DNA of 64,000 bases from the NCBI GenBank assembly GCA_040876925.1, contig JBBDOS010000004.1:37330-101329 (forward strand). The letters run 5' to 3'. The position numbers and the translations under genes were made by a program. Origin of the DNA: Candidatus Saccharimonadales bacterium (GTDB lineage Bacteria; Patescibacteriota; Saccharimonadia; QS-5-54-17). The notes beneath the pieces are model-generated. The model made no database searches. It saw only the letters and a list, made by a program, of their open reading frames with translations, and had not been told where the DNA came from. This document shows, one piece after another, positions 3,922 to 42,299 of this stretch (position 1 is its first letter; each line of letters opens with the position of its first letter).

Positions 3922-3939
3922 TGAAAAGTATCTTAGGAA

Positions 3940-4257: not shown

Positions 4258-4464
4258 AATTTATTGATTCTCTTTCTTATAAACAATCGTATCATATCCT
4301 AACAGTATTACTTAGCGGTGTAAAGACCACACCAGTATTTTACTGCTTGCTATGATGATCTGTAGTTTGTTCCTGAGGTTTTTAACATTAACTACTAGTG
4401 CTTAGCCTATGCTAAAATATCAAAGAGCAATAACTTATAAAGAGAGGTTAGTAGAAATATAAAA

Positions 4465-24714: not shown

Positions 24715-24752
24715 TATATACCACTTAAGTCCTGTATAATAGATATTTAAGT

Positions 24753-26374: not shown

Positions 26375-26432
26375 TTTCTAGGGTGTTTAACCCTATAAAC
26401 TAACCCTTAATTCCTATATAGTATACGATGTA

Positions 26433-29048
26433 ATGAAGAAGATATTGACGAAGATTTTTGACCCTGGCAGTAAACAGCTGAGGCAAATTCAACCACTAGT
26501 AGATCAGACTAATGACCTAGAAGCTGGAATCAAAAGCTTAAACGATAAAGACTTAGCGGCCAAGACAACTGAATTTAAAAATCGCTTAGAAAAAGATGAG
26601 ACTCTAGATGATATTTTGCCTGAAGCTTTTGCGGTAGTTAGAGAAGTAGCTAGACGTAAACTAGAACAAAGACATTTTGACGTACAGTTACTCGGCGGCA
26701 TAGTTTTGCATAAAGGTGATATTGCCGAGATGCGTACCGGTGAGGGTAAAACTTTAGTGGCTACATTACCAATTTATCTAAACGCTCTTAGTGGTAAAGG
26801 AGTGCATCTAGTCACCGTTAATGATTATCTAGCTCGTCGTGATGCTGGTTGGATGGCAGATATTTATGCTTTCCTAGGACTTAGCGTCGGTGTCCTTACT
26901 GGTGGTAATAAGGGTTTTATATATGATCCAGAGACAGTAGATGAATCTCATAGCGATCCTAGATTGCAACCATTTCGCGAAGTCCCCAAAAAAGAAACCT
27001 ATGCTTGCGATATTGTTTATGGTACCAATAACGAATTTGGTTTCGATTATCTGAGAGACAACATGGCGCCAAATAAAGACGCTATGGTGCAACGGGAATT
27101 AAGTTTTGCCATAGTTGATGAAGTTGACTCTATCTTAATCGATGAGGCTAGGACGCCTTTAATTATATCTGCCCCGGCTGATAAGAGCACCGATACCTAC
27201 CAGCAGTTTGCTACTATTGCCAAACAGCTAAAAGAGGGTGATCACTACAGTGTGGATGAGAAACAGCGGGCAGTTAGTTTAACTGATGATGGAGTCAGTA
27301 AAGTTGAACAGATATTAGGGGTTGATAATCTTTATGATCCAGAATTTGTCCAATCTATATTCCACTTAGAACAAGCTCTCAAAGCAAAGGTTTTATTTAA
27401 GAAGGATAAAAACTATGTAGTTAGAGACGGCGAAGTGATTATAGTCGATGAGTTTACCGGCAGACTAATGGCCGGTAGACGCTATAGCGAAGGGTTGCAT
27501 CAAGCTATTGAAGCTAAAGAAGGAGTTAGGGTATTACAGGAATCTGTCACCCTAGCTACTGTCAGTTTCCAGAACTACTTTCGTTTGTATGACAAATTAG
27601 CTGGTATGACCGGTACGGCTAAAACTGAGGAAGAAGAGTTTCAAAACATCTACAATCTAGATGTAGCAGAGGTGCCCACCAACCAACCAGCCATCAGAAC
27701 TGATTTATCAGATAGAATTTACAAAACTGAAGATGCTAAATTCAATGCTATCGTCAAAGACGTGACTGAGAGGCAGGCAAGAGGTCAGCCAGTCTTAATC
27801 GGTACAGTTTCAATCGAGAGAAACGAGATTATTTCCGAAAAGCTTAGCAAAGCTGGTATAAACCATGAAGTATTAAATGCTAAGAATAACGAACAAGAAG
27901 CCGATATTATTGAGCAGGCTGGCCAGCCAGGAGTTGTCACGTTAGCTACCAACATAGCTGGTCGTGGTACAGATATAGTCTTAGGCGAAGGGGTTGTAGA
28001 ACAGGGAGGTCTGCATGTTCTAGGTTCTGAAAGACATGAATCGAGAAGAATTGACAACCAGTTGAGAGGTCGTACCGGACGTCAAGGCAATCCTGGCAGT
28101 ACCCAGTTCTATGTCAGTTTGGAAGATGAAATTATGCGGATTTTTGGCGGTGAGAGAATATCTAATTTGATGGGTTCCTTAGGTGTAGATGAGGATACCC
28201 CTATAGAAAACAATATGGTTTCTAAAGCTATAGAAAATGCTCAAAAAAGAGTAGAATCACACAACTACGACATCAGAAAAAACGTGCTGCAGTATGACGA
28301 TGTTATGAATCGTCACCGTGAAGCTATTTATGCCAGGCGCCGCAACATACTAGAGGAAAAGCCACTTAAAGAAGATATATTAGCTATGGTTGATGGTGAG
28401 ATTCGTCACGCCATAGAAGTCCATAGTGACGTAGAGGATGAGGAGATTAAGCGACCAGATTTATTTAAATATCTAGGTGGTTTTATCCAAGTTAAGGAAT
28501 CAGAATTTAAGGACGTTGATGATAATGATCTAGTCGATAAGCTAACAGAAAAGGCCAGGAAACTATATGAAGCCAGAGAGAAAGAGTTTGACGAAGAAAT
28601 AATGCGCACTATTGAAAGGCATACCTACTTACAAGCTCTTGATAGATTATGGATGGATCATCTAGAAGCTATGGATCACTTGCGCCAAGGTATCCATTTA
28701 CGCAGTGTCGGTCAGCGCGACCCACTAGTAGAATACAAGAAAGAATCTCATATCATGTTTAACAATCTAGAAGCTAATATTGAGCGAGAAGTAGCTACTA
28801 CCATATACCGCATGGTGCCCAGGCAACAAACAGCAGAAGAGGCTCAGGAAACGGAGCTAACTAGAGCCGCTGAAAATGCTCAGATATTTAGGAGTAATAA
28901 TGGTGGTCAAGGCTCTTCACGAGGCAGCGGCACTGTCGCTACAGTTCGTAAGGGCGATAAGGTAGGGCGTAACGATCCTTGTCCGTGCGGTTCGGGGTTG
29001 AAATATAAGAAATGCGCTCTAATTAATGCGCCGGAACATAAAGGGTAA
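26433..29048 (+). CDS. secA: preprotein translocase ATPase SecA
   Basis: 871 aa with DEAD-like motor motifs (MRTGEGKTLV, DEVDSILIDEART, TNIAGRGTDIVLG) and a C-terminal zinc finger (CPCGSGLKYKKC). Confidence 0.95.
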   Translation: MKKILTKIFDPGSKQLRQIQPLVDQTNDLEAGIKSLNDKDLAAKTTEFKNRLEKDETLDDILPEAFAVVREVARRKLEQRHFDVQLLGGIVLHKGDIAEMRTGEGKTLVATLPIYLNALSGKGVHLVTVNDYLARRDAGWMADIYAFLGLSVGVLTGGNKGFIYDPETVDESHSDPRLQPFREVPKKETYACDIVYGTNNEFGFDYLRDNMAPNKDAMVQRELSFAIVDEVDSILIDEARTPLIISAPADKSTDTYQQFATIAKQLKEGDHYSVDEKQRAVSLTDDGVSKVEQILGVDNLYDPEFVQSIFHLEQALKAKVLFKKDKNYVVRDGEVIIVDEFTGRLMAGRRYSEGLHQAIEAKEGVRVLQESVTLATVSFQNYFRLYDKLAGMTGTAKTEEEEFQNIYNLDVAEVPTNQPAIRTDLSDRIYKTEDAKFNAIVKDVTERQARGQPVLIGTVSIERNEIISEKLSKAGINHEVLNAKNNEQEADIIEQAGQPGVVTLATNIAGRGTDIVLGEGVVEQGGLHVLGSERHESRRIDNQLRGRTGRQGNPGSTQFYVSLEDEIMRIFGGERISNLMGSLGVDEDTPIENNMVSKAIENAQKRVESHNYDIRKNVLQYDDVMNRHREAIYARRRNILEEKPLKEDILAMVDGEIRHAIEVHSDVEDEEIKRPDLFKYLGGFIQVKESEFKDVDDNDLVDKLTEKARKLYEAREKEFDEEIMRTIERHTYLQALDRLWMDHLEAMDHLRQGIHLRSVGQRDPLVEYKKESHIMFNNLEANIEREVATTIYRMVPRQQTAEEAQETELTRAAENAQIFRSNNGGQGSSRGSGTVATVRKGDKVGRNDPCPCGSGLKYKKCALINAPEHKG

Positions 29049-29060
29049 TTTTTAAATACT

Positions 29061-30386
29061 ATGAGCAAGGTAGCAATCCTAGGATTTGGCATAGAAGGTA
29101 AGTCTGCTTATCTCTATTTTAAGTCTTTAGATCATGAGATTACTATCTGTGATAACAATGAGGATTTAGAGTTGCCTGCAGGGGTCAACTCTCAATTAGG
29201 AGCTAACTATTTAGATAACTTAGACAAATTTGATTTAATCATCAGATCTCCAGGAGTGTTGCCATATAGTTTTGAGACTAAAACCGAAGTCACTACTGTT
29301 ATGAATGAGTTTTTAGCTAGAGCTAGAGCCAAAAAGATAATAGGTGTGACTGGCAGTAAGGGTAAAGGCACTACGACAGCTCTTATTGATGAGATACTAA
29401 AAACTGCTGATTTAAGCACTTTTCTTGGTGGCAATATCGGCACTCCACCACTAGATTTTATCAATCAAGTTACAGTAGATGATTATGTTGTCTTAGAGAT
29501 GAGTAATTTACAGCTTTGGGATATTAAACACAGTCCAGATATTGCAGTGCTATTAATGATAACTGCTGATCATATGGATTGGCACAGAGGCAATATGGAT
29601 GAGTACGTGGCTATTAAAGGTAATATTACTAAATTTCAAGATAGTAATGGCTTACTTATCCATCACCCCAGCAATGAATATGTTTTAAATATAGCTAGAA
29701 GTAGTAAAGCTAGAGCCAGGAAGTTTCTGGATGTTCAGTCTGCCTGGGTTGATAAGGGCATGATTATGTATCAGACTAAAGCGATTTGTAGCAGAGATGA
29801 AATTAACTTAATCGGTGATCACAATTTAGAGAATGTCTGTGCAGCTATAGCTGCTAGTTGGGATATATTAATGGATGAACTGGGAGATGAGACTAAGACG
29901 ATAGCAGTGCTAAAAGAAGCTCTCAAAAGCTATCAAGGATTACCTCATAGACTAGAGTTAATAACCCAAAAAGGCGAGATTAGATTCTATGATGATTCTA
30001 TCGGCACTACTCCCGAAGCTACCATAGCAGCAATTAGAGCTTTTAATGAAGATAAAGCTTTGATTATGGGTGGGTCAGATAAAGGAACAGACTTTGATGA
30101 ACTAGCTAAAGTTATCGCAGCTGATAAACAGATTAAATCAATATCACTAATTGGCAGTACGACTACTAAGATTAAAAAGTCTTTATTAGCAGCCAGTTAT
30201 AGTGGTGAGCTTCACGAGGTTGCCGGCAACGCTAATGAGGTGATGCTGAAGGCTGTATATCTAGCCAATTCATCCTTAGCAGGTAAGGGGGTAGTGCTAT
30301 TAGCGCCAGCCTGTGCTAGCTTTGATTTATTCAAGGACTATCAGGCAAGAGGCGAAGAATTTAAAAACGCTGTAGCCAGTATTTAG
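29061..30386 (+). CDS. murD: UDP-N-acetylmuramoyl-L-alanine--D-glutamate ligase
   Basis: MurD N-terminal Rossmann (VAILGFGIEGKS), Mur ligase P-loop (GVTGSKGKGTT) and C-terminal domain. Located outside the dcw cluster. Confidence 0.85.
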   Translation: MSKVAILGFGIEGKSAYLYFKSLDHEITICDNNEDLELPAGVNSQLGANYLDNLDKFDLIIRSPGVLPYSFETKTEVTTVMNEFLARARAKKIIGVTGSKGKGTTTALIDEILKTADLSTFLGGNIGTPPLDFINQVTVDDYVVLEMSNLQLWDIKHSPDIAVLLMITADHMDWHRGNMDEYVAIKGNITKFQDSNGLLIHHPSNEYVLNIARSSKARARKFLDVQSAWVDKGMIMYQTKAICSRDEINLIGDHNLENVCAAIAASWDILMDELGDETKTIAVLKEALKSYQGLPHRLELITQKGEIRFYDDSIGTTPEATIAAIRAFNEDKALIMGGSDKGTDFDELAKVIAADKQIKSISLIGSTTTKIKKSLLAASYSGELHEVAGNANEVMLKAVYLANSSLAGKGVVLLAPACASFDLFKDYQARGEEFKNAVASI

Positions 30387-30463
30387 ACGATGCTTTAGAA
30401 TGTATAAAACAGCTTAAAAATACCCCCTAGTATTTAATTAGGGGCAGGAGAGGTATTCTTTTC

Positions 30464-31723
30464 ATGAAACACAATATTAAAGAAATAACGCTCAAGAATG
30501 GAGCTAAGGGACTACTTATTAATGTGCCAGGAGCTTCGGTAGTGAGAATGTTAGTCGAGTTTCGGGCGGGATTTGATCTAGGCAGTCAAGATAAGTATGA
30601 GTTACCTCACGTTACAGAGCATATGATGTTTACTAATAAGGCTTATCCAAAGCCTAGAGCTTTTTCTAGAGAGATTGAAAAGAACGGCGCTATTAATAAC
30701 GCTTCCACAAGTTCTACTAGCCTAAAGTATTTTTATGAATGTGCTAACTTTGAAGCAGAAAGGATAGCAGATTTGCTATCTATTCAAATAGCTCAACCAC
30801 TTTTTGACGAGAAAGAACTAAAAACTGAACTAGGTAACGTAGCCGAAGAATTAAGTTCTTATATATCCAACCCAGCTTACGCTAGCGGCTATAACTTAAG
30901 GGTTGCTGCTGAAGGGGAGCCCACTTTAGAAACTAGAATAGAGCAACTATCTAGCGTTAAAGCTGAGGATCTATATAGCTATTATGATAAAACTCACTCA
31001 GCCGATAATATGCGCTTTATTATTGCAGGTGATCAAGGGTTAGAATCTATATCAAATCAGCTTGCTGAATCCGGCCTAAAATCAGGCAAGAGATTAGATC
31101 TGCCAGAGATTCCTACCAAGCATGTAGATAAACCAGTAGTTGAAATTAGGGATATACCGCAAATTTATTACCAGCTCTTTAGCGCTCACAACAAACCTTT
31201 GAGTTACAGGCAGTTAGTAGCTGCTAGGATACTATCAGGATTGTTATCCGATGGTTTCAGTTCTACTTTACTAGGTTTAGCTAGAGAGAAGGGTTTGGTG
31301 TATGGTATGTACACCGATATAGAGTCAAGTAACTATAACTCTGGATTTATGATGGGTGGCTCCGTATCGCCTAGTAATATCGATGAATATATTGATTTAG
31401 TTGTTGATGAGATAAGCAAGGTTCTAAGAGGCGAGGTAGATGCCGACCACTTTGAATCTACTAAGAAGCTATTACTAGGCCAGCGAGCTTTGCAGTATCA
31501 GAAACTAAGTAATTTAGTTAGTTATTACGATTCTTACTTTACTATAGGGTATCAGCCATTTAATGAATTTAATAAGCTTATAGAAGAAGTTAGTTTAGAG
31601 GAGGCGATCCAGGAGTTTAACAAACTGTTTGCTCAAAAAACCTGGGGGGTTAGCTTCTTAGGTAATATAGATGATAAGCAGGCTGCCAAACACTACAAGA
31701 AACTAGCTAGTATCTGGAGATAG
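30464..31723 (+). CDS. M16 family (pitrilysin/insulinase-like) zinc peptidase
   Basis: Inverted zinc motif HxxEH (HVTEHMMF) near the N-terminus; two-lobed M16 architecture. Confidence 0.75.
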   Translation: MKHNIKEITLKNGAKGLLINVPGASVVRMLVEFRAGFDLGSQDKYELPHVTEHMMFTNKAYPKPRAFSREIEKNGAINNASTSSTSLKYFYECANFEAERIADLLSIQIAQPLFDEKELKTELGNVAEELSSYISNPAYASGYNLRVAAEGEPTLETRIEQLSSVKAEDLYSYYDKTHSADNMRFIIAGDQGLESISNQLAESGLKSGKRLDLPEIPTKHVDKPVVEIRDIPQIYYQLFSAHNKPLSYRQLVAARILSGLLSDGFSSTLLGLAREKGLVYGMYTDIESSNYNSGFMMGGSVSPSNIDEYIDLVVDEISKVLRGEVDADHFESTKKLLLGQRALQYQKLSNLVSYYDSYFTIGYQPFNEFNKLIEEVSLEEAIQEFNKLFAQKTWGVSFLGNIDDKQAAKHYKKLASIWR

Positions 31724-31993
31724 AACACAATTTAATTAGCGTAATAAACCCCAGTGATTTATAAAAGTATTCAAATTATTATTTAGGGATAAAATACTTT
31801 ACTCAAATTATATATTATCCATACTTAGTTTACTTGACAGTATGGTATAAAAATGTTAATGTTTTAATATCTATTCGTAAAGTGTGAGGTGGAGACCAAA
31901 GCATTTACGACCCTAGAGGTCTTTGACAAGCTACATATTTGTAAATTATATCTGTTATATTAAGATATTGTTCGCTATTTAGTATATGTAGTT

Positions 31994-32046
31994 CAAAAGC
32001 AGAACACTGTAGGCTATTTAAGGTTGTCTTTAGTGTTCTGCTTTTG
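31994..32046. other. long hairpin in the 560-bp noncoding region (15-bp perfect stems CAAAAGCAGAACACT / AGTGTTCTGCTTTTG, 23-nt loop)
   Basis: Inverted repeat seen directly. Could be a terminator for the M16 gene or a structured RNA element. Confidence 0.4.
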
Positions 32047-32151
32047 GCTTATATGCTAAGAGCAATATTTAAGTGACCGATATGTATTTTTGTATTTTTC
32101 CATAACTTTAAATGTTTCTTCTTCTATAGAGGCAAGGAGCAGCACTGTATT

Positions 32152-32172
32152 GCAAACTATTAATTAGTTTGC
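32152..32172. promoter_or_regulatory. palindrome GCAAACTA-ttaat-TAGTTTGC (8-bp arms) at the left edge of the island
   Basis: Perfect inverted repeat seen directly; candidate operator or protein-binding site. Confidence 0.35.
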
Positions 32173-32238
32173 GGTATGTTGCTGTTCCTTACCCTGTGGG
32201 GGTCCGAGGAAAGGTAGTTAGAAAGCCTAACTACCCTT

Positions 32239-32258
32239 GATGCATTAACATGCATCAC
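32239..32258. promoter_or_regulatory. palindrome TGATGCAT-taac-ATGCATCA (8-bp perfect arms) 27 nt upstream of island ORF1
   Basis: Perfect inverted repeat immediately upstream of the GGGGGAG RBS and ATG at 32285; candidate operator. Confidence 0.4.
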
Positions 32259-32284
32259 AGCAGACTCCCAGAAGGGGGAGAGAC

Positions 32285-32731
32285 ATGACTGTCGAGAACA
32301 ACACCAGGCCAATCACCAACGCCGAGATGCGTGAGCGGTTCGATCACTTCGAGCAGATTCTTGAGCGCAGGAGTCGGTGGTATCGTTTGCGTAGCTGGTT
32401 CAGTACTCGTAATGAGGGTCGAGCCAGGCTCAACAAAACCAGTCTCCGTGAGAGACTGGCAAACAGAGATTCCGTTCAGCTGAACGGCAAGCTGCTTCCA
32501 TTGGCTGTTAGCGCAGTCCTTGGTTTGCTAGCTGGTTGGATCGCTGTCCGGATCGGTCTGAGTCTTTCCGACCGAGTTGCTGAAATTGCTGGTACCAGCC
32601 TTGGCTGGCTGGCTCTTCAGCAGATCGTCATCACGATTTTGGCGATACTCATCGGTATCTACACGTTTCGATGGGTGCTGAACTACTTCAAGGAAGACCA
32701 ACTCGAGGAATCTAACAACGATTCCTCCTGA
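32285..32731 (+). CDS. hypothetical 2-TM membrane protein encoded in the GC-rich island
   Basis: 148 aa with a basic N-terminal region (RRSRWYRLRSWFSTRNEGRARL) and two hydrophobic helices. Strong RBS. Confidence 0.6.
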   Translation: MTVENNTRPITNAEMRERFDHFEQILERRSRWYRLRSWFSTRNEGRARLNKTSLRERLANRDSVQLNGKLLPLAVSAVLGLLAGWIAVRIGLSLSDRVAEIAGTSLGWLALQQIVITILAILIGIYTFRWVLNYFKEDQLEESNNDSS

Positions 32732-32753
32732 AGATCACCAAGGAGGTGACAGC

Positions 32754-33845
32754 ATGAAGCGCATATTGGCGCTAGTCGGGGTGCTGCTGCTAGTTGCAGC
32801 CATCCCGCTCGTCACCATCTTTGGTGGTGACGATGAACCCGTCATTGATCAGGCTGAATCCGAAGTGGAGTCAGAGCCTGATCCCGAATCAGAACCCGAA
32901 CCAGAACCCGAACCAGCATCCGAATCAGGGTGTCTGACGTGGGAATCGGTTGAGGGTAACCACGACAACAACAGGTGGTTTGGTGATGGCATTGCAAGCA
33001 TTCTAGAAGCACAAACGCGTGAGGATGCTCGTAATGCAGCCGATGAATTCTTGGGGCTGGTTAAGCACCATCCCAACCTACTCGTGGCAACGACTCGTTA
33101 TTTCCTTGACCGTGAGGTTGAGGCAGTTGAGTTGTTCGATCGAGACGACTGTGCTACAAATGAGGCTGAAGTTCTCGTAGCTGAACTAGAGATAGTTCTG
33201 GCCGCGAGTGATATCTCAGTTGATGAAGCACCGTCTGATGGGTACAACTCTGGTGTAGATGAGCATGGAACGGCTGGTGTATCAACTCACCCCGGAATTA
33301 CTGGTAACCGTCAGGCTATCAAGATTGTGAAGCCTGATGGTACGGTGATTTGGATTATGGGTAGGTGCGGTAACATCGTCGTTACTGAGCCTCCGCCAGA
33401 TCTACCCGAGGTTCCAACAGATGAACCGCCTCCGAAGGAGGTCAAGGACCCAAGCGAGGATGTTTTGTTGAATCCAGACGTCCCAGATAGGGTTCGAGGT
33501 CCATCTGGAGGAAGTGGGTGCGGTGATAAGCCCTGTGAGGTTGATGCTCCTGAAGCTGATCCTGACAGGACGCCGCCGTCAACCGACTCTCCTGAACCAC
33601 CACCTCCAGAACCTGGCGGCTATGAGCAGCCAGACTCTTCTGATGGTGGAGGTTCTCCTGGCGGTGGAGACGATTCAGTCGTTTCTGAGCCAGATGATGA
33701 TGCAGATGACAACCCCGAGCAGGATGACTCTAAGGAGCCATCTCCAGGTACGTCATCTGACACTTCCAACGATGCTGATTCAGACGACGCAAAGACGCCT
33801 GAGTCAGACGAAACCAATCAGTCAGGAGATCCTGGAATGCCCTAG
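32754..33845 (+). CDS. secreted/anchored acidic Pro-Glu-Ser-Asp-rich protein encoded in the GC-rich island
   Basis: N-terminal signal/anchor (MKRILALVGVLLLVAAIPLV), then an (EPEP)n linker, a globular segment with Cys residues, and a long acidic/proline low-complexity tail. No LPxTG. Confidence 0.6.
   Translation: MKRILALVGVLLLVAAIPLVTIFGGDDEPVIDQAESEVESEPDPESEPEPEPEPASESGCLTWESVEGNHDNNRWFGDGIASILEAQTREDARNAADEFLGLVKHHPNLLVATTRYFLDREVEAVELFDRDDCATNEAEVLVAELEIVLAASDISVDEAPSDGYNSGVDEHGTAGVSTHPGITGNRQAIKIVKPDGTVIWIMGRCGNIVVTEPPPDLPEVPTDEPPPKEVKDPSEDVLLNPDVPDRVRGPSGGSGCGDKPCEVDAPEADPDRTPPSTDSPEPPPPEPGGYEQPDSSDGGGSPGGGDDSVVSEPDDDADDNPEQDDSKEPSPGTSSDTSNDADSDDAKTPESDETNQSGDPGMP
32852..32927 (+). repeat. 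tandem hexanucleotide-type repeats encoding the (S/E-P-E/D)n linker
   Basis: GAGTCAGAGCCTGATCCCGAATCAGAACCCGAACCAGAACCCGAACCAGCATCCGAATCA seen directly. Confidence 0.6.
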
Positions 33846-34131
33846 CGGCTCACCAGCGGTTTCCTATGAGTAATGGAGATACATGGATCATATCGGGTCA
33901 CTGCGTGCTACTGGGGCAATCTTTTGTTTTAAAGGGCTAACACCTCTTTGATAAAAAACAAAAGACCCCCAGTAGCCGCATTACCCTAAATAGTTTTCAA
34001 ATATGTAGTTTGTTGAAGTGTAAATCCTAGAGGGAAAGAGCACATTAATAAGCCAAACCTAGAGAAGAGATACATTAAACAATTAGAAACTTTTAGTATT
34101 TTAAGTAAATTCCCTATGAAAGGAGAATGAT

Positions 34132-35439
34132 ATGAATATAAGAAATATATTAAACTATATCAGCTATGTTCCTAAGTCATTTACAGCTATAGCCGCAGCA
34201 CTTGTGGTTACTGTAATGCCTATAGCAACTATGGCTGGTTTTGGTCCGGATAGACCAACTTTTAGCATTAACGATCCAGCAGATTACGTAACTTTCAACT
34301 CTATTACCGATAATCCAAATTATGGTGATGAGAGATACTTCTTTGATGGTAAGCCTGCTAGTGACACTAGTACAGGCGGCTTCTCTGACCCTATAGAAAT
34401 AGGTGATTTAGACGATGGTGATGAGCTATTGCTACGTGTATACGTACACAACAACGCCAAAGAAAGTCTAAACGATAGCGGTGAAGGTATTGCCAAGAAC
34501 ACTCATGTTAGAGTAGATCTACCTAACAATACCGATAGATCACTACGTGCTACTGCTAGCATTTCAGCTGATAATGCTAACCCAGGTACGGTATATGACA
34601 CATTAGACTTTACTAGTGCTAATAGACCATTCAACCTAGATTACGTTGCTGATTCAGCTGTGATTCATACTAATGCTGTGCCAAGCGGTATGAATCTAAG
34701 TGATGACATCATCACTTCTAACGGAGCTAAGATAGGATACGATAAACTTAATGGTGAAGTGCCTGGATGCTTTGAATTTACAGGTATAGTAACCTTAAAG
34801 GTTAAAGTTAACAAAGCGGACGTAGAAGTCGATAAGTTTGTTCGTAAGCTAGGTGAAACTGAGTGGAAAACTGAAAATAATGCTAAGCCTGGAGACACGC
34901 TTGAGTATTTGATACGCATGAAAAACTCAGGTAGCACTACTCTTAAAGATGTCATGGTAGGCGATAATCTACCTAAGTACACTTCATATGTAGAAGGCAC
35001 CACTATGTTGAAAAACATGAACAACCCTAACGGTATTAGTATCGACAACGATAATATTACCAAGGGAGGTATCAATATAGGTCACTATGAACCTGGATCT
35101 GTAGCGTATGTATGGTTCCAGGCCAAAGTCGATCCTGTAGGAGTATTCGATAAGTGTGGAGACTATACTATCCGCAATGTTGGCGTAGTACGTCCTGAGG
35201 ATATGAATGAGTTCTTCAACACTGCAGATACCAATGTCACTATTAAGTGTGAAGTGACTCCGACAGGTGCACCTCCTGAAGATGTTCCTGAAGATGTTCC
35301 AGAAGGCGTTCCAGAAGAATTGCCACAAACTGGTATAGGTGGCATCTTCGGTGGATTGATAGGTAGTGGAGCTCTAGGTATCGGCTTAAGAAGCTGGATA
35401 GGTTCCAGAAGGAAGTTTATCGACTCTTTAATGAGTTAA
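34132..35439 (+). CDS. cell-surface protein with DUF11-like repeat domain and C-terminal LPQTG sorting signal
   Basis: N-terminal signal region. A DUF11-like segment (KPGDTLEYLIRMKNSGSTTLKDVMVGDNLPKYTSYVEGTT) lies at about 34837-35122. A PEDVPEDVPEGVPEE linker precedes LPQTG (35320-35334), followed by the hydrophobic IGGIFGGLIGSGALGIGL and a basic RSWIGSRRKF tail. Confidence 0.8.
   Translation: MNIRNILNYISYVPKSFTAIAAALVVTVMPIATMAGFGPDRPTFSINDPADYVTFNSITDNPNYGDERYFFDGKPASDTSTGGFSDPIEIGDLDDGDELLLRVYVHNNAKESLNDSGEGIAKNTHVRVDLPNNTDRSLRATASISADNANPGTVYDTLDFTSANRPFNLDYVADSAVIHTNAVPSGMNLSDDIITSNGAKIGYDKLNGEVPGCFEFTGIVTLKVKVNKADVEVDKFVRKLGETEWKTENNAKPGDTLEYLIRMKNSGSTTLKDVMVGDNLPKYTSYVEGTTMLKNMNNPNGISIDNDNITKGGINIGHYEPGSVAYVWFQAKVDPVGVFDKCGDYTIRNVGVVRPEDMNEFFNTADTNVTIKCEVTPTGAPPEDVPEDVPEGVPEELPQTGIGGIFGGLIGSGALGIGLRSWIGSRRKFIDSLMS
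35275..35316 (+). repeat. tandem 12-mer repeats (CCTGAAGATGTT x2, CCAGAAGGCGTT, CCAGAAGAA) encoding the PEDV linker
   Basis: Seen directly in the coding sequence just before the LPQTG motif. Confidence 0.55.
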
Positions 35440-35460
35440 TAGATAAAGACTTCTAAAAGA

Positions 35461-35512
35461 CCTAGATCGGCTCTAGGTAAGCACCCCTGTTTTGCAGGGG
35501 TGCTTTTAATTT
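35461..35512 (+). terminator. rho-independent terminator (tandem hairpins: CCTAGA-tcggc-TCTAGG, then AAGCACCCCTG-ttttg-CAGGGGTGCTT followed by TTTTAATTT)
   Basis: GC-rich 11-bp stem with a T-tract 22 nt after the stop of the LPQTG protein. Confidence 0.8.
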
Positions 35513-35588
35513 AACTACATCTAGTTAAATATTTAGCAAGAATAGCCCAATAACAGGGTTAGAGATGATATACATGGAATGCATATAT

Positions 35589-35617
35589 TTGACAAAAGCA
35601 TAAGTAGATAGTATAAT
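35589..35617 (+). promoter_or_regulatory. consensus sigma70 promoter (-35 TTGACA, 17-nt spacer, -10 TATAAT) for the PKD/LAQTG surface-protein gene
   Basis: TTGACA at 35589-35594 and TATAAT at 35612-35617. The leader contains a small hairpin (GGTGT-gaaggagttt-ACACC) holding an SD-like AAGGAG in its loop, then the true AAGGAGG RBS. Confidence 0.7.
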
Positions 35618-35671
35618 ATAGAACATTAACCAAGGTGTGAAGGAGTTTACACCACAAGGAGGTTTTAAGAG

Positions 35672-36742
35672 ATGTTAAAGAATCTAAGAATTAAGAACTA
35701 CATTTTAGTTATAGCTTTGTTTCTAGCTGGTATATTAGGAGTTGTTAGTATAGGTAGCTCTTTTGCAGCTAGTGATAATGATATTGTTTATGGTGGTGTT
35801 TCTAATCAAACTGATCTACGCAACAAGTTTAATAATGGCGATGGACACAACTCAGCTGCTAATATCCAAGCCATCTATCGTGAAGCTATTGGCGTAAAGA
35901 AATCTACTGAAATGAGCGGTATGAGCTGGGGCTATGTTTACCGTGACGGTAGGGTGGTAGTTGATGGTAAGACGGTAGCCACTAATGCTAAAAGCTCAGG
36001 TAGATTAAACTTCCGCAACTCTAAACCATTGGGTGATACCGGTGCTTTCTACCATGATACCGATATTCGCTTCAGTTCAGGCACTAATAAGCTACGTGCA
36101 CTAATAAAGCTCGATAGTAATGGTAAGTATAAGTTTGCTGTTATAGCTAATTGTGGTAACCCAGTTATTGCTAAACCAGTTCCAGTTCCTGAGCCAGACC
36201 CAGAACCTGAGCCAGACCCTGAACCAGAACCAGAACCAGAACCTAAGCCTGAACCTAAGCCACAACCACAAGCTAGCTTCGTGTGCGATAGCTTAAGTAT
36301 TAATAAGCAACAGGTTAATCCTGGTGATAGAGTTGTCTTTACAGCTAGTTCTAGCAGGAATAACACTAGCCTAGAGGACTACAGCTACCATTTCGGTGAC
36401 GGTGAGGTTCTAACTACTAGACGTAATATGATTTCATATAGTTACAGCGAGCCAGGTACTTACACAGCTTATGTCATAGTTAATACTGATGCCGGCAGTA
36501 CTCAGCCAACCAGTATTTGTGAAGTAACCGTGCAGGTATTAGCTGAGGAAATACCAGAAACACCAGAAGAGTCTACATCTGAGCCAAAAGCACCAGAGAA
36601 GCTAGAAGAAGCTCCTGAAGAGCTAGCGCAAACAGGTGTTGGTAGTGGTTTACTAGGTCTAATGGGTAGCGGTATTCTAGGTGCTACTGTCCAAGGCTTT
36701 AGGATGACCCGCAAAAAGTTTCTAGACACTATATTGGGCTAG
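35672..36742 (+). CDS. cell-surface protein with PKD-like domain and C-terminal LAQTG sorting signal
   Basis: Signal peptide (ends ...SSFAASDN). A PVPVPEPDPEPEPDPEPEPEPEPKPEPKPQPQ linker is followed by a PKD-like segment (YHFGDGEV...EPGTYTAYVIVNTDAGS, about 36278-36542). The tail carries PEEL-AQTG (36623-36637), the hydrophobic VGSGLLGLMGSGILGATV and the basic RMTRKKF. Confidence 0.8.
   Translation: MLKNLRIKNYILVIALFLAGILGVVSIGSSFAASDNDIVYGGVSNQTDLRNKFNNGDGHNSAANIQAIYREAIGVKKSTEMSGMSWGYVYRDGRVVVDGKTVATNAKSSGRLNFRNSKPLGDTGAFYHDTDIRFSSGTNKLRALIKLDSNGKYKFAVIANCGNPVIAKPVPVPEPDPEPEPDPEPEPEPEPKPEPKPQPQASFVCDSLSINKQQVNPGDRVVFTASSSRNNTSLEDYSYHFGDGEVLTTRRNMISYSYSEPGTYTAYVIVNTDAGSTQPTSICEVTVQVLAEEIPETPEESTSEPKAPEKLEEAPEELAQTGVGSGLLGLMGSGILGATVQGFRMTRKKFLDTILG
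36170..36270 (+). repeat. tandem hexanucleotide repeats encoding the (PE/PD/PK)n linker
   Basis: GAGCCAGACCCAGAACCTGAGCCAGACCCTGAACCAGAACCAGAACCAGAACCTAAGCCTGAACCTAAGCCACAACCACAA seen directly. The opposite strand gives the spurious (GS)n ORF 36049-36366. Confidence 0.65.
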
Positions 36743-36762
36743 TTTAACTTAGCCCAATATAG
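36729..36762 (+). terminator. hairpin overlapping the stop codon (13-bp perfect stems CTATATTGGGCTA / TAGCCCAATATAG, 8-nt loop)
   Basis: Seen directly. No clear U-tract follows, so this may be a terminator or an mRNA-stabilising hairpin. Confidence 0.5.
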
Positions 36763-36818
36763 CTAGGGGCTACCTAAATTGTAGGTATCTAATATATACT
36801 GATATCTTAAGTAGTCTT

Positions 36819-37904
36819 ATGCATGAATTAAGTAAAGAACTAGAGATATTATTAGATCGGACTGATCAAGCTATGGATCAGTTGGATATTGCTGCTAAAA
36901 AACAAACAGTTGTTGATTTGGAAACAGAAATGGCTAGTCCTGATTTCTGGAATGATTCTGATCTAGCTGCTACAAAGTCCAAAGAACATGCCGATCTCAA
37001 AGACCAAGTCAATCAATGGCAAGATCTAAGAGATGATATAGCTGGTGCTATAGAGATGGCTGAACTGGAAGATCATTCATTACTCAAAGATTTAGAGGCG
37101 CAACATGAACAGCTTAAAGAGCGCTTCGAGAAGAAGGAGTTTGAAGTTAAGTTATCTGGTAAATATGATAAGAATGACGCTATCATTCATATTCATAGTG
37201 GTACTGGCGGTACCGATGCTCAGGACTGGGCGCAGATGTTAGAGAGAATGTATTTAAAGTACGGCGAAAAAACCAATCTTGAATCTGAAGTTATTAGTGA
37301 ATCAGTTGGAGACGAGGCCGGAATCAAAAGTGCTATCCTGCGTCTAAGCGGTCTATATGCCTATGGGCGTCTGCAGTCCGAGCACGGAGTCCATAGACTA
37401 GTCCGCTTATCTCCATTCAATGCTGATAACTTGCGTCAGACTAGCTTTGCTTTGGTGGAAGTTACTCCTGATATATCAGAGCCTAAAGACATAGAGATTG
37501 ACGAAAAGGACTTACGAGTTGATGTCTACCGTGCCGGTGGTAAAGGTGGCCAGTCAGTCAATACCACTGATTCTGCAGTACGTATTACCCATATACCTAC
37601 CAATATTACAGTAGCTATTCAGAACGAAAGATCTCAGCTTCAAAACAAAGAAGCTGCCATGAAAGTTTTACGAGCTAGATTAGCTCAGCTGCAGCATGAA
37701 CAGCACGAAGAGGCAATCAGTAAACTCAAAGGTCCTAGCCATACTCAGCAGTGGGGTCAGCAGATAAGGAACTATGTCTTACACCCCTATACATTAGTGA
37801 AAGACACTCGGACAAATTTTGAGACTAACAATGTCGATAGGGTGCTTGATGGTGACTTGGACGATTTTATAGACGCCTACTTAACTTATAATATATCGTC
37901 TTAA
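36819..37904 (+). CDS. prfB: peptide chain release factor 2 (single uninterrupted ORF, no programmed +1 frameshift)
   Basis: RF2-specific SPF tripeptide (RLSPFNADN) and GGQ (GKGGQSVNTTDSAVRITHIPT). The full-length 361-aa ORF starts at ATG 36819. Confidence 0.92.
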   Translation: MHELSKELEILLDRTDQAMDQLDIAAKKQTVVDLETEMASPDFWNDSDLAATKSKEHADLKDQVNQWQDLRDDIAGAIEMAELEDHSLLKDLEAQHEQLKERFEKKEFEVKLSGKYDKNDAIIHIHSGTGGTDAQDWAQMLERMYLKYGEKTNLESEVISESVGDEAGIKSAILRLSGLYAYGRLQSEHGVHRLVRLSPFNADNLRQTSFALVEVTPDISEPKDIEIDEKDLRVDVYRAGGKGGQSVNTTDSAVRITHIPTNITVAIQNERSQLQNKEAAMKVLRARLAQLQHEQHEEAISKLKGPSHTQQWGQQIRNYVLHPYTLVKDTRTNFETNNVDRVLDGDLDDFIDAYLTYNISS

Positions 37905-37938
37905 GGACACTTACTTATACCGCCCCGCCTATGCTAAT

Positions 37939-38625
37939 ATGATAGGCGTGATATTACTTGATAGATTATCAAAATCATATGGAAAATCCGTGGCTCTAGA
38001 ACGGGTAGATTTACATATCCATCCCAAAGAGTTTGTTACGGTAGTAGGCCGTAGTGGAGCTGGCAAATCGACCCTTATAAAGTTACTTATACAAGAAGAA
38101 AAACACAGCTCCGGCAAGATTATAGTTGGCGGGGTAGATTACGATAATTTGAAGCGTCGTGATATACCAAAATTGAGGCGTAAAATAGGGGTAGTATTTC
38201 AGGACTTTAAGCTACTTAACAATCGCAATATCTATGAAAATGTAGCTTTTGCATTAGAGATTACCGGTACTAGACCTAGTGTCATTAAACATACTGTACC
38301 AAAAGTAATTAAACTGGTCGGGCTAGAAGGTAAAGAGAGGAACTTTCCTCATGAGATATCTGGCGGAGAGAAACAGAGGGTAGCTATAGCTAGGGCGATT
38401 GTACGCCAACCCAATATATTAATAGCCGATGAACCAACCGGCAACTTAGACCCCAAGCATTCCTGGGATATTATAGAGCTGCTACTAAAGATTAATCGTT
38501 ATGGTACGACTGTAATTCTAACCACTCACAATCGTGATATTGTTAACGCTCTGCAGAGAAGGGTGGTAACTTTGCGTGACGGTAAAGTAGCTAACGATGA
38601 AGAAAGAGGTAGTTATGAAGTATAG
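37939..38625 (+). CDS. ftsE: cell-division ABC transporter ATP-binding protein FtsE
   Basis: Walker A GRSGAGKST, ABC signature ISGGEKQRVAIARA and Walker B ILIADEPT. Paired with ftsX. Confidence 0.9.
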   Translation: MIGVILLDRLSKSYGKSVALERVDLHIHPKEFVTVVGRSGAGKSTLIKLLIQEEKHSSGKIIVGGVDYDNLKRRDIPKLRRKIGVVFQDFKLLNNRNIYENVAFALEITGTRPSVIKHTVPKVIKLVGLEGKERNFPHEISGGEKQRVAIARAIVRQPNILIADEPTGNLDPKHSWDIIELLLKINRYGTTVILTTHNRDIVNALQRRVVTLRDGKVANDEERGSYEV

Positions 38626-38640
38626 GGGAGAGATTAAGCT

Positions 38641-39573
38641 ATGCTAAAGACCCTGCTTAGAAAATTACTAATGCTCTGGAGGGTGATTACCTCAGGTACA
38701 CGTAACTTCTTTCGTAACGCCTGGTTAAGCGTAGCGGCTACTACTGTCATGGTGATCACTCTCACTATTATATTAGGGGCCGTAGTTTTGAACATGGCTT
38801 TAGGAGATACTCTGGATAAGATTACTGAGTCGATCGATATAGCCATATTTTTTAATGACGATGCGCCGATGAGTATGGTTAATCAACTACAAAACGACTT
38901 AGAAGAGTTAGATAATGTTACCGGAACAGAGTATATATCTAAAGATGACGCTCTAAGACAGTATCGACTAGACAATATTGACAACCAAGATGTATTAGAT
39001 GCTGTCACTGAAGGGGACAATCCACTGCCTACCAGTTTAGAGGTGCAGGTTCAAGACTTACAGCTGATCGATGAAATTATCATGCTCACTCAGGAGGATC
39101 AATACTTAACTATTATTGAAGATACTTCATTAGGAGAAGATAGACGCAGAACTATAGAGAGGATAGCTGATACTAGGCAGTTCTTAATTACTGCCGGCAT
39201 AGCTGCCAGTCTGATATTTGCTAGCGTATCAGTATTAATTATCTTCAACACTATTCGTATGGCTATATTCGCTAGAGGGGATGAGATTAGTATTATGCGT
39301 TTAGTCGGTGCCACTAATGGATTTATTAGAGGGCCGTTCTTATTCGAAGCCATACTAGATGGATTAATCGCTGCTAGTATTAGTTTGGGGCTGGTTTACT
39401 TACTATTATTTAGGGGAGCTACCAGAATAGTTAATGACTTTATTAGTTTTGATGCTACCATTGCGTTCTTTAGCGATCAGTGGCTGCTAGTAGTGCTAGC
39501 TACCTTAGCAGCTGGAGCATTGATAGGTGTTATCTCCTCGATGATGGCCATGGTTAGGTATCTAAAGCTATAG
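38641..39573 (+). CDS. ftsX: cell-division permease-like protein FtsX
   Basis: 4-TM FtsX topology with a large extracellular loop between TM1 and TM2; directly follows ftsE. Confidence 0.85.
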   Translation: MLKTLLRKLLMLWRVITSGTRNFFRNAWLSVAATTVMVITLTIILGAVVLNMALGDTLDKITESIDIAIFFNDDAPMSMVNQLQNDLEELDNVTGTEYISKDDALRQYRLDNIDNQDVLDAVTEGDNPLPTSLEVQVQDLQLIDEIIMLTQEDQYLTIIEDTSLGEDRRRTIERIADTRQFLITAGIAASLIFASVSVLIIFNTIRMAIFARGDEISIMRLVGATNGFIRGPFLFEAILDGLIAASISLGLVYLLLFRGATRIVNDFISFDATIAFFSDQWLLVVLATLAAGALIGVISSMMAMVRYLKL

Positions 39574-39714
39574 CTTTAAGGGGCTTATAAAAAGCATACA
39601 AAGTTAGGCAGTTGTTTGTATTAGTGCTTATGCTATAATCTATGGCCTAGCCTTTACTAATTTGAATAAGTTTTTTAAACATAACCTAAGCTGGTTTATT
39701 TAGCGTAACAACTA

Positions 39715-39743
39715 TTGATTTGTTAGCAATAATTTGGTAATAT
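39715..39743 (+). promoter_or_regulatory. sigma70-like promoter (-35 TTGATT, 17-nt spacer, -10 TAATAT) for the CHAP hydrolase gene
   Basis: Motifs seen at 39715-39720 and 39738-39743. This implies that the TTG start at 39734 in the ORF track is upstream of the transcript start. Confidence 0.5.
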
Positions 39744-39760
39744 CTTGGAGTAATGTACTA

Positions 39761-40933
39761 ATGTTAATTAGTAAATATATGAAAACAAAAACTATCAAAC
39801 TCAAAAGTATTATTTCTATTGTGGCAATTTTCGCCCTACTTATAGGGTTTTATTCTGATGTGTTTGCGCAGAATCTGAGTAATATACATAGGCAAATAGA
39901 ATCTGTTAATAGAGAAATTAGCCAATCAGAGAGTCGCATAGAAGAATTAAGGCGGAGAGAGAATACGCTACAAAATCGGTTAGCTGTATTAGATGCCGAA
40001 GCCAGACAATTAGAGCAAGAGATAAGTCGTACCAAAACAGAAATAACTAAAACTCGAGCAGAGATTACAGAAAAAGAAAAGGAACTAGCTCGCACCAAAG
40101 AAATGATTCAAGAGAGTGCCAAGACTCTATACAAGCAGGGCGACCCATCGACAATAGAGATATTATTCTCTAGCGAAAACTTTACCGACTTTATTAATAA
40201 GCGAGAATATCTGGATAGGGTTAAAACTAGCTTGAATGAGGCAGCTAAGGAGGCAGTATTGCTTAAAGGAGAGTTGGAAGAAAAAGAGACAGAACTTAAC
40301 TTTAAGTCTCGTGAGCTCAGTGGACAACGAGTACAATTAACTAGTCGACAAGAAGAACAAAAACGACTAATAGAAGAAACACAAGGAGAAGAATCTCGCT
40401 ATCAAGAGATTGTAGAGAATCAACGCGGAGAGCTGCAAAGACTTGAAGAGGAGCAAAGGCGAGCATATGATCGGTTCTTAAATAATTTCAATCCAGAGAC
40501 TCGCCCTGGAGATCCCAGTAGGGGTAGCTATCCAGACAAATGGCACAATGCACCTATAAATTCTATGGCGGATGATTGGGGTATGTTTAACAGACAATGT
40601 ACAAGCTATGCTGCTTGGAGAGTAGCTAACGATGGCAAATTTATGCCTAGGTGGGGTAATATACACCCATTTCCGAGAGGTAATGCTCGTTACTGGCCAA
40701 CACATGCCATTAGCGACGATATACCAGTAAATAATACTCCAAAGATTGGAGCAATAGCAGTTTGGGGACCAAATCAGTTTGGTATGAGTAGTATGGGTCA
40801 CCTAGCTTATGTAGAACAAGTTAATGGTGACGGCTCCATCTGGGTGAGTCAGTATAATGTTATAGCTGGTCAATATAATGAAATGAGAGTTCCTAGTTCG
40901 CAGGCACCTAATCTAAGATATATTCATTTTTAG
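39761..40933 (+). CDS. PcsB-like secreted peptidoglycan hydrolase (N-terminal coiled-coil plus C-terminal CHAP domain)
   Basis: Signal peptide (MKTKTIKLKSIISIVAIFALLIGFYSDVFAQN). About 200 aa of coiled-coil follow (EELRRRENTLQNRLAVLDAEARQLEQEI...). The CHAP domain has catalytic Cys (NRQCTSYAAWRV) and His (GHLAYVEQV). Start placed at ATG 39761; ATG 39779 is an alternative. Confidence 0.8.
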   Translation: MLISKYMKTKTIKLKSIISIVAIFALLIGFYSDVFAQNLSNIHRQIESVNREISQSESRIEELRRRENTLQNRLAVLDAEARQLEQEISRTKTEITKTRAEITEKEKELARTKEMIQESAKTLYKQGDPSTIEILFSSENFTDFINKREYLDRVKTSLNEAAKEAVLLKGELEEKETELNFKSRELSGQRVQLTSRQEEQKRLIEETQGEESRYQEIVENQRGELQRLEEEQRRAYDRFLNNFNPETRPGDPSRGSYPDKWHNAPINSMADDWGMFNRQCTSYAAWRVANDGKFMPRWGNIHPFPRGNARYWPTHAISDDIPVNNTPKIGAIAVWGPNQFGMSSMGHLAYVEQVNGDGSIWVSQYNVIAGQYNEMRVPSSQAPNLRYIHF

Positions 40934-40988
40934 GTTGTTGGCCTAATTATATTTAAGCAACACATCCATAACGCTCATGCTACAATAG

Positions 40989-42224
40989 TTGCTAGTGGAA
41001 GAGAGATTAAACCAACTAGACGATAGAGATTCAAATAGAGGCAAGAAGCCAGGCTTTGGTTTAGCCTCAGTTATCGCTATAGCAGTACTTGTAGGGTCTT
41101 TAGGCTTTGTACTGGGTACGAATGTTGATCAGCTTGGTATAAGCAGGCAATACGAAACTCAGAATGAGGATTTACCAGAGAGCCTAGACTATAGCTCTAT
41201 AGATAGACTATATGACTTGTTGCGTGAAAACTATGCTGGTGACTTAAGTCTAGAAGATCTAATGCTAGGACTGAAGCAGGGCTTAATTAATGCTACTGGC
41301 GATCCTTTTACGGAATATTTAACGGCCGAAGAAGCTAAGGAGTTTCATAATAGCTTGAACGGTGAATTTAGTGGTGTAGGCATAGAGATAGGCATTAGAG
41401 ATGACCGTTTAGTAGTAATTGCTCCTATAGCAGACACACCGGCTGATAAGGCGGGTCTAAGAGCAGGAGACGCTATAGTAGCTATTGGTGAGGAAGATGC
41501 TACTGATATGGGCTTACAAACAGCCGTAAGTAAAATTAGGGGTGAAGATGGTACTGAGGTGACTTTAACTATCAGTCGAGAAGGTGAAGAGCTGCAAGAT
41601 ATAACAATAACCAGGGGTTTGATAGAGGTTCCTAGTGTAGATTCAGAGGTGTTAGCCAGTAATATCGGCTATATTAAGCTAAGTAGGTTTGGTAGCGATA
41701 CTGCCAGTGACTTCCGTAAGGCGGCTCAAGAGCTAGTAGATCAAGGAGCTAGCAGTATAGTTCTAGATATGCGCAATAACCCAGGGGGATACTTTGATGC
41801 AGCTATCGGTGTAGCTAGTGAGTTCCTTGAGACCGGTGAGGCAGTAGTAGAGGAGCGTCGCGGCGATGAAGTCATAGCTACTGAAAGAGCCAGAAATAGC
41901 GGTAGCCTCATAGGATTACCGGTAATAGTGCTAGTCAATGGTGGTTCAGCTAGCTCTAGTGAGATTGTCTCTGGAGCTCTGGGCGATCATGAAGTAGCAA
42001 CTATTGTTGGTGAGCAAACTTTTGGTAAGGGTAGTGTCCAGCAACTTATAGAGGTTGGGGATGGTAGTAGTCTAAGAGTTACTATAGCTAACTGGTATAC
42101 TCCCTCAGGTCTTAATATTAGCGATTCTGGTGTTACACCAGATGAGGTAGTAGAGATGAGCCAAGAAGATTTTGAATCTGGATTAGACCCCCAGCTTGAT
42201 AGAGCTATAGAAATACTTGAGTAA
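40989..42224 (+). CDS. ctpA: C-terminal processing (tail-specific) protease, S41 family, with PDZ domain
   Basis: PDZ segment (GVGIEIG...DTPADKAGLRAGDAIVAI), S41 catalytic Ser box (GGSASSSEIVSGAL) and Lys box (TFGKGSVQ). Confidence 0.85.
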   Translation: MLVEERLNQLDDRDSNRGKKPGFGLASVIAIAVLVGSLGFVLGTNVDQLGISRQYETQNEDLPESLDYSSIDRLYDLLRENYAGDLSLEDLMLGLKQGLINATGDPFTEYLTAEEAKEFHNSLNGEFSGVGIEIGIRDDRLVVIAPIADTPADKAGLRAGDAIVAIGEEDATDMGLQTAVSKIRGEDGTEVTLTISREGEELQDITITRGLIEVPSVDSEVLASNIGYIKLSRFGSDTASDFRKAAQELVDQGASSIVLDMRNNPGGYFDAAIGVASEFLETGEAVVEERRGDEVIATERARNSGSLIGLPVIVLVNGGSASSSEIVSGALGDHEVATIVGEQTFGKGSVQQLIEVGDGSSLRVTIANWYTPSGLNISDSGVTPDEVVEMSQEDFESGLDPQLDRAIEILE

Positions 42225-42299
42225 TTAATATTTAACTAGTTTTATGACAAACTTATTGTTAATATAGGGGCATAGAAATACAAGGAGTGGTGTTAAGTT

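Follow-up and report, generated by a model that had tools for sequence, protein, structure and literature searches.

The extended C-terminal tail of Saccharibacteria surface proteins is probably a lineage-specific form of LPXTG-type sorting signal

The canonical LPXTG cell-wall sorting signal (CWSS), the sortase A paradigm represented by the models TIGR01167 and PF00746, is a C-terminal pentapeptide that follows a disordered linker and precedes a membrane segment and a basic cluster, and it is carried by proteins with an N-terminal signal peptide and immunoglobulin (Ig)-like adhesin passengers. In this study, we analysed two adjacent open reading frames (ORFs), designated ORF A and ORF B, in a 64-kb stretch of DNA from Candidatus Saccharimonadales (Saccharibacteria/TM7, Patescibacteria), hereafter called the window. 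The tails of the two encoded proteins and of their Saccharibacteria relatives share this arrangement. Unlike the canonical signal, the Saccharibacteria tails have a membrane segment that is conserved in sequence and always 23 residues long, and a basic cluster in the conserved form S-R-R, after which comes a conserved extension of 8–10 residues (x-L-x-x-x-L-x-x); and whereas the canonical signal ends with a short basic tail, 7–8 more conserved residues follow SRRK or TRKK here. We estimate a probability of approximately 0.7 that these extended tails are a Saccharibacteria-specific subclass of the sortase-type CWSS, processed by a sortase. The evidence supports the extended tail as a lineage-specific variant of the known LPXTG-type signal, present on hundreds of different surface proteins, and does not at present argue for a new type of system.

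A sequence-only reading of the window by a model had proposed two LPxTG-like ORFs with a shared extended tail; both exist, and it had placed them correctly to within a few codons. Both proteins occur with identical sequence on contig JBBDUB010000028.1 of assembly GCA_040904145.1, and the nearest named homologue is a protein from a Saccharimonadales metagenome-assembled genome. The second Ig-like region of ORF A is a DUF11/CLIPPER domain, based on matches to PF01345 and TIGR01451. The features of the two genes are listed below. Signal peptide, linker and tail elements were read from the sequence, with predictions by AlphaFold2 (AF2) and its confidence score (pLDDT) given in brackets, and the two intergenic elements come from a consensus scan only.

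34132..35439 (+): ORF A, 435 amino acids; signal peptide, two Ig-like beta-sandwich regions, Pro/Glu linker and extended sorting tail
34132..34236 (+): N-terminal signal peptide or anchor of ORF A, MNIRNILNYISYVPKSFTAIAAALVVTVMPIATMA (AF2 helix at residues 15–32)
35245..35319 (+): Pro/Glu-rich linker of ORF A, ending in PEE (AF2 coil, pLDDT approximately 50)
35311-35319 (+): PEE of ORF A, directly before the pentapeptide
35320..35334 (+): LPQTG of ORF A, with the putative sortase cleavage between T and G (TIGR01167 alignment from residue 396)
35335..35403 (+): 23-residue Gly/Ala/Ser-rich membrane segment of ORF A, IGGIFGGLIGSGALGIGLRSWIG (single AF2 helix)
35404..35436 (+): basic cluster and conserved, predicted-cytoplasmic extension of ORF A, SRR-KFIDSLMS (AF2 helix to the last residue)
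35437-35439 (+): stop codon of ORF A
35479..35505 (+): terminator-like hairpin just after ORF A, with a 12-bp stem, 7 GC pairs and a T-rich tail
35589..35617 (+): perfect sigma-70 consensus, TTGACA-17-TATAAT, upstream of ORF B
35672..36742 (+): ORF B, 356 amino acids; signal peptide, N-domain, PEP repeat linker, PKD and extended sorting tail
36614-36622 (+): PEE of ORF B
36623..36637 (+): LAQTG pentapeptide of ORF B, with Ala at P3
36638..36706 (+): 23-residue Gly-rich membrane segment of ORF B, VGSGLLGLMGSGILGATVQGFRM
36707..36739 (+): basic cluster and conserved extension of ORF B, TRK-KFLDTILG
36740-36742 (+): stop codon of ORF B

Both tails comprise 42 residues and follow a single pattern, namely, PEE-L[P/A]QTG, 23 Gly/Ala/Ser-rich residues, [S/T]R[R/K] and K-F-[IL]-D-[ST]-[LI]-[ML]-[SG]. 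The membrane segment IGGIFGGLIGSGALGIGLRSWIG of ORF A contains a conserved Arg or His position (tail position 27) and a conserved aromatic position (position 29). At the N-terminus, each ORF shows a basic n-region and, after it, a hydrophobic h-region. Because a hairpin lies after ORF A and a promoter consensus lies before ORF B, the sequence suggests that the two genes form separate transcription units. The N-domain of ORF B (residues approximately 36–167, window 35672..36172) spans approximately 130 residues without a Pfam family; it recurs N-terminally on many tail-bearing proteins (P0128, P0130, P0134 and 3619..4389 of locus L009), and its motif in relatives is D-C-D-x-N-A-[IV]-[IV]-x-C-G.

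Since ORF A and ORF B are direct neighbours read in the same orientation, the likeness of their tails might reflect recent paralogy or gene conversion, with no wider meaning. We give this explanation practically no credence. The similarity between the two proteins is confined to the last approximately 80 residues (BLASTP E = 1e-10), and their passengers, DUF11 in ORF A and the unnamed N-domain plus PKD in ORF B, are unrelated. Over the 126 nt (42 codons) of tail DNA, the two genes are 56% identical, with only 40% identity at third codon positions, and 9 of the 19 identical tail residues are encoded by different codons. Since the codons have diverged, the likeness has been kept at the protein level and is not that of a recent copy. 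The same tail also occurs in 565 protein clusters elsewhere, as described below, and the recent-paralogy reading is refuted.

To describe the family, we used the homologues of ORF A, approximately one-third of which (among 120) end in the same kind of tail; 28 of these tails align without gaps. The profile of the 28-tail alignment, searched against 1.84 billion representative proteins (clusters at 50% identity), matched 565 clusters at E <= 1e-3, including 63 at E <= 1e-10. The prospect that only the two window proteins carry the tail, with nothing in relatives, is clearly contradicted by these 565 clusters. Each of the 145 newly retrieved matches ends within 11 residues of the C-terminus (145/145) and retains xTG (145/145), on proteins ranging from 63 to 951 amino acids in length. 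The exact spacing and a gap-free alignment were retained in 136 of the 145, and across these 136 tails exactly 23 residues always separate TG and S-[RK]-[RK]. Their motif begins as P-x-E-[LI]-[PA]-x-T-G-[PA]-x5-G-[LVI]-[FAL]-G-[TS]-[SG]-A-L-G-[YL]-[GAS] and continues as x-[RHY]-x-[YWF]-x-x-S-[RK]-[RK]-x-L-x-x-x-L-x-x.

Conservation around the cleavage motif is high at P4, where L or I is found in 96% of the 136 tails, and at P3, where P or A is found in 99% (Pro in 109 tails and Ala in 25). The PEEL that had been read from the two window proteins is kept only in part across the family, with P present in 63% and E in 40% of the tails, alongside the 96% for L/I. A hidden Markov model (HMM) built from the 136 tails, with both window proteins left out, gave scores of 59.9 bits for ORF A and 34.0 bits for ORF B, and no other match in the window.

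The proteins that carry the tail are modular. Among 109 tail-bearing proteins, Pfam identified PKD in 51 and DUF11 in 44, the others being further Ig-like families, and a signal-peptide-like N-terminus was recognized by a simple heuristic in 115 of the 145 tail proteins. The passengers form a small set of shuffled modules and are not mutually unrelated; single-linkage clustering, tried as proof of unrelated passengers, failed, with shared PKD and DUF11 modules joining nearly everything. The tail is also found on architectures without a common module, as in ORF A and ORF B. In public databases, the tail proteins are named hypothetical, DUF11 domain-containing or PKD domain-containing. All organism-named matches, together with the tail loci in species-representative genomes (6/6), belong to Candidatus Saccharibacteria/Saccharimonadales. 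Scans with narrower tail alignments yielded 6 genome loci and 13 metagenome loci, too few for a census, and viral contigs scanned with the tail alignments gave no match. In conjunction with the fixed spacing, the invariably C-terminal position and the varied passengers, these results bear out the proposal in the sequence-only reading of a lineage-specific sorting-signal variant. The papers found, among them studies of a TM7 genome and of the Candidate Phyla Radiation (CPR), contain no description of the extended tail.

Next, we compared the tails with known sorting-signal models, using the curated cut-offs of 15.9 bits for TIGR01167 and 20 bits for PF00746. When the 28 tails were searched against NCBIfam, TIGR01167 (LPXTG_anchor) was the sole sorting-signal model to respond. 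On the isolated ORF A tail, it scored 17.5–18.9 bits, above its cut-off. In ORF A, the model aligned residues 396–428 of 435 with its positions 1–31 of 34, so that several residues, noticed earlier beyond the basic patch, extend past a canonical signal. The response is limited to few tails: at E <= 1, TIGR01167 matched 5 of the 28 and PF00746 matched 8 of the 28, while PF00746 matched 1 of the 109 tail-bearing proteins at E <= 1e-3. The comparison with LPXTG and PEP-CTERM models suggested by the sequence-only reading accordingly gave a signal on the LPXTG side only. No match at E <= 1 was obtained between the 28 tails and PEP-CTERM, GlyGly-CTERM, PGF-CTERM, MYXO-CTERM, JDVT-CTERM, Synerg-CTERM or other sorting-signal models in NCBIfam, the matches besides TIGR01167 being three stray single ones.

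Several observations weigh against processing by a sortase. No sortase was found in the 64-kb window by a TLxTC-type regular expression on the ORFs, by a looser His...Cys...Arg pattern or by Pfam, nor in approximately 390 kb of Saccharibacteria DNA around tail genes by the two patterns and precomputed Pfam tables. The assignment of a sortase to the source genome draws on literature about other TM7 genomes, and outside Microgenomates the sortase family is described as 'patchily detected' (PMC6744442). Whole ORF A scores only 13.4 bits against TIGR01167, under the cut-off of 15.9, and ORF B gives no match to this model. In the selected tail set, the information content is approximately 46 bits for the membrane segment and 21 bits for the extension, compared with approximately 15 bits for the pentapeptide. 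Moreover, a few relatives have a degenerate pentapeptide with the rest of the tail kept, namely, IAKGG (L015/L017, 8978..10132) and LPNTS (L023-L026); an altered specificity may act on such substrates, or they may be anchors that are not cleaved.

Three of these observations, namely, the missing sortase in the DNA examined, the higher information content of helix and extension, and the IAKGG and LPNTS variants that keep the rest of the tail, favour a different explanation, in which the tail is a permanent, uncleaved membrane anchor whose helix and extension mediate helix–helix or partner contacts, with the LPxTG-like motif as a relic or hinge. The one long helix predicted by AF2 could indeed cross the membrane and project into the cytoplasm. 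We nevertheless consider a permanent anchor unlikely. A relic would hardly be so well kept across proteins of less than 50% identity, with xTG in 145/145, L/I in 96% and P/A in 99%, and the motif stands just outside the membrane segment after a disordered linker, which is exactly the position in a sortase substrate. The degenerate variants are also rare, forming 2 groups among approximately 25 distinct tail-bearing ORFs in the loci.

For the preferred sortase reading, published surveys offer support: a TM7 genome has sortases together with predicted sorted proteins (Kantor et al. 2013, PMC3812714), and the sortase family is present in more than half of CPR genomes (Meheust et al. 2019, PMC6744442). 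The gene for the putative processing enzyme would thus lie apart from those of its substrates, the usual situation for housekeeping sortases. In this respect, the tails differ from the pilin-type CWSS handled by class C sortases, as no sortase lies within 10 kb of the tail genes in the window and in the related loci fetched. The window encodes wall-building functions, including MurD, MraY, FtsW/RodA, two penicillin-binding proteins (PBPs) and an LCP enzyme, and it also encodes signal peptidase I and HtrA. The S41 protease Ctp (40989..42224), considered as a reader of the tail, was ruled out by topology: the end of the tail should be cytoplasmic, and Ctp acts outside the membrane.

Two further membrane proteases of the window, identified by Pfam, are relevant to the question of the enzyme.

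16050..17120 (+): RseP-type M50/PDZ site-2 protease
17163..17933 (+): CPBP/Rce1-like intramembrane protease, directly after the RseP-type protease

This pair is flanked by uppS (15366..16046) and proS (17934..19625). The Haft-type domains (PEP-CTERM/exosortase, GlyGly-CTERM/rhombosortase, PGF-CTERM/archaeosortase and MYXO-CTERM/myxosortase) resemble the Saccharibacteria tails in being short, lineage-restricted, HMM-detectable C-termini that combine a signature motif, a membrane helix and an Arg-rich cluster and occur on many secreted proteins with little else in common. In keeping with such systems, the tails might be processed by an enzyme other than a sortase, for instance, a myxosortase-type CPBP glutamic protease such as the one at 17163..17933, or a rhomboid or exosortase-type enzyme. 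The location of the CPBP/Rce1-like protein directly after the RseP-type M50 protease and the presence of MrtS and MrtJ among its best NCBIfam matches speak for this explanation, as does the Gly-rich, helix-destabilised membrane segment, which is typical of intramembrane-protease substrates. On balance, we regard it as very unlikely. The scores of the CPBP protein are far under the cut-offs (MrtS, 39.8 against 130; MrtJ, 37.3 against 75; Mrt_core, 21.8 against 100), and it resembles MrtS and MrtJ at the level of the shared domain only; CPBP proteins are, moreover, common housekeeping membrane proteases. Unlike the Haft-type domains, the tails have the sortase motif itself as their signature, match none of the corresponding models at E <= 1 and lack an invariant Cys, the hallmark of known CPBP-processed signals (PMC11980579). 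No cognate enzyme family exceeds its threshold in the window, and the Pfam tables of the window and related loci contain no exosortase or rhomboid family. The suggestion in the sequence-only reading of another C-terminal processing system has accordingly gained no positive evidence.

Among described sortase systems, the class E LAXTG signals (Streptomyces coelicolor SrtE1/SrtE2 and the chaplins; PMC5148588) resemble the tails in having Ala at P3, as seen in ORF B and in 25 of the 136 tails. The class E sortase SrtE1 cleaves LAETG as well as LPETG, and its cytoplasmic part matters for function in vivo (PMC5148588). Similarly, Pro and Ala forms occur in one Saccharibacteria genome. Unlike the class E signals, most Saccharibacteria tails have Pro at P3 (109/136, including ORF A), and actinobacterial LAXTG signals are not known to share this conserved membrane segment and extension. 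Because LPxTG and [LI]AxTG are mixed within one genome, with LPQTG and LAQTG in adjacent genes, analogy with SrtE1 suggests an enzyme that shares the tolerance of class E sortases for either Pro or Ala at P3.

The structure of the tail was predicted by AF2. On the 28-tail alignment, residues 1–9 (through TG) were predicted as coil and residues 10–41 as a single helix, with the highest confidence at 21–40. In the full-length ORF A model (pLDDT 87.9), beta domains at 40–371 are followed by a disordered region at 372–402 and a helix at 403–434. The extension is most simply modelled as a cytoplasmic continuation of the membrane helix by about two and a half turns. Gly, Ala or Ser occupies tail positions 14, 15, 18, 20, 21, 23 and 25 in 84–99% of the 136 tails, in agreement with the Gly-rich character first noticed in the two window proteins; a specific GxxxG packing along one face of the helix found no support. 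The helical moment of conservation over the membrane segment, examined for a one-face glycine zipper, is 0.04, no better than shuffles, and over positions 12–41 the best period is 100 degrees, which approximately 10% of shuffles match. In Foldseek comparisons, the passenger of ORF A resembled Ig-like modules found in integrins and in Gram-positive adhesins and pilins that are sortase-anchored (E 1e-7 to 1e-4), with TM-scores of only 0.2–0.28 that indicate a fold-class resemblance only.

These observations are consistent with the following mechanism. The tail protein would be exported by the Sec system via its N-terminal signal peptide, as read from the sequence. The C-terminal helix would then halt export, leaving S-R-R and the extension in the cytoplasm, as expected from the positive-inside rule and the AF2 helix. 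By analogy with LPXTG processing, a membrane sortase would cut [LI]-[PA]-x-T|G and pass the Ig passenger to lipid II/peptidoglycan, and a C-peptide of 34–35 residues would be left in the membrane. This conserved remnant would most likely serve as a second recognition determinant for a cognate membrane-embedded sortase. A conserved membrane segment with a function is best exemplified by the FLIAG motif of the Actinomyces oris tip pilins CafA and FimB, a motif within the CWSS that decides the sortase pathway (PMC11389406). FLIAG likewise lies beyond the pentapeptide and inside the signal. Unlike the Saccharibacteria segment, FLIAG has a different motif sequence and concerns pilus tip assembly, with a pilus-specific sortase encoded beside its substrates.

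Alternatively, the conserved remnant might be required for handling of the C-peptide, that is, for its clearance by the RseP-type site-2 protease or for sensing similar to that in Streptococcus gordonii, in which a cleaved LPXTG C-peptide is sensed according to work cited in PMC11326707. This example, as it is cited there, indicates that a membrane remnant can itself be functional, and a role of this kind would account for a constraint on the remnant. The parallel is a pure analogy, and no sensor kinase or other partner was linked to the Saccharibacteria tails.

Many ORF A homologues end in a short sister form of the tail, LPxTG-P-x-D-x-I-G-I-F-A-A-V-x-V-A-G-x-x-A-H-[RK]-x-V-x-S-R-R, followed by only 2–3 residues and without the x-L-x-x-x-L-x-x extension. 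It was seen in proteins P0004-P0006, P0019 and others and at 10001-11545 of locus L035, including some homologues 56–58% identical to ORF A. The short forms with S-R-R (e.g. P0019, P0026 and P0035) have TG, 23 residues and SRR, with a basic residue or His five places before SRR. Because this short form sits on close homologues of ORF A, tail classes have been exchanged between orthologues. The extension thus sets one subclass apart within a broader sorting-signal skeleton of Saccharibacteria. An intermediate third form, ...A-Y-Y-x-x-S-R-R-x-L, scores 25–40 bits with the tail HMM. The loci carrying the extended form, a sample too small to judge mutual exclusion by genome, showed no short-form tail.

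A further-reaching proposal, possible but somewhat doubtful in our judgement, is that the helix and the S-R-R-x-L-x-x-x-L extension define a separate Saccharibacteria sorting route, read by a dedicated partner, that sends Ig-domain adhesins to a particular destination. If so, the adhesins could be directed, for instance, to the zone of contact with the host bacterium, and the partner could be either a lineage-specific sortase clade, recognized via its own membrane or cytoplasmic portion, or some other membrane protein. Given the short sister tails in the same TG + 23 + SRR frame, the extension would then be a switch between two routes. A related possibility is that the released C-peptide signals the load of surface proteins.

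The tail genes occupy a conserved genomic slot. On the upstream side, the order is SerS, HPF, SecA, MurD, (M16 peptidase), Pro/Glu-rich secreted proteins and the tail protein(s), and on the downstream side PrfB, FtsE, FtsX, a CHAP hydrolase (PcsB-like), Ctp and PyrG. This slot was detected in the window (24256..43904) and in loci L012, L013 and L034, and the order is kept across distant Saccharibacteria. The presence of surface adhesin genes inside a core division/wall locus is unusual. Two to four tail genes lie side by side in L006, L009, L022 and L030.

Just upstream of ORF A, 32754..33845 (+) encodes a 363-amino-acid secreted protein that lacks an anchor and has a long C-terminal half rich in Pro, Glu, Asp and Ser; it lifts the local G+C to 0.50 compared with approximately 0.39 elsewhere; similar Pro-rich proteins precede the tail gene in L009, L012, L013 and L035. 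Three other observations concern more distant genes. A 322-amino-acid protein at 59660..60628 (+), with Mtd_N (major tropism determinant N-terminal) and Gly_rich_2 matches, is encoded in the dcw cluster between a PBP gene and MraY. A second Mtd_N-type protein (L028 14063-15103, -) is located approximately 3 kb past the end of the window, beside a TrwB/VirD4-like coupling ATPase. At 8217..8987 (+), a 256-amino-acid polytopic membrane protein without a Pfam or NCBIfam match lies directly downstream of, and overlaps, a LytR-CpsA-Psr gene.

Saccharibacteria live as obligate epibionts on the Actinobacteria to which they attach. Foremost among the candidates for host recognition are their surface proteins, but for most of these the annotation reads hypothetical, DUF11 or PKD protein. 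A dedicated tail profile would flag hundreds of clusters as probable wall-anchored proteins that are missed by generic LPXTG models, and it would provide a computable list of candidate adhesins for each genome. It is unusual for a sorting signal to have membrane and cytoplasmic parts that are conserved like the cleavage motif. Some Saccharibacteria are now genetically tractable, and their tail offers a natural system for learning which features outside the pentapeptide are recognized by sortases or by downstream factors.

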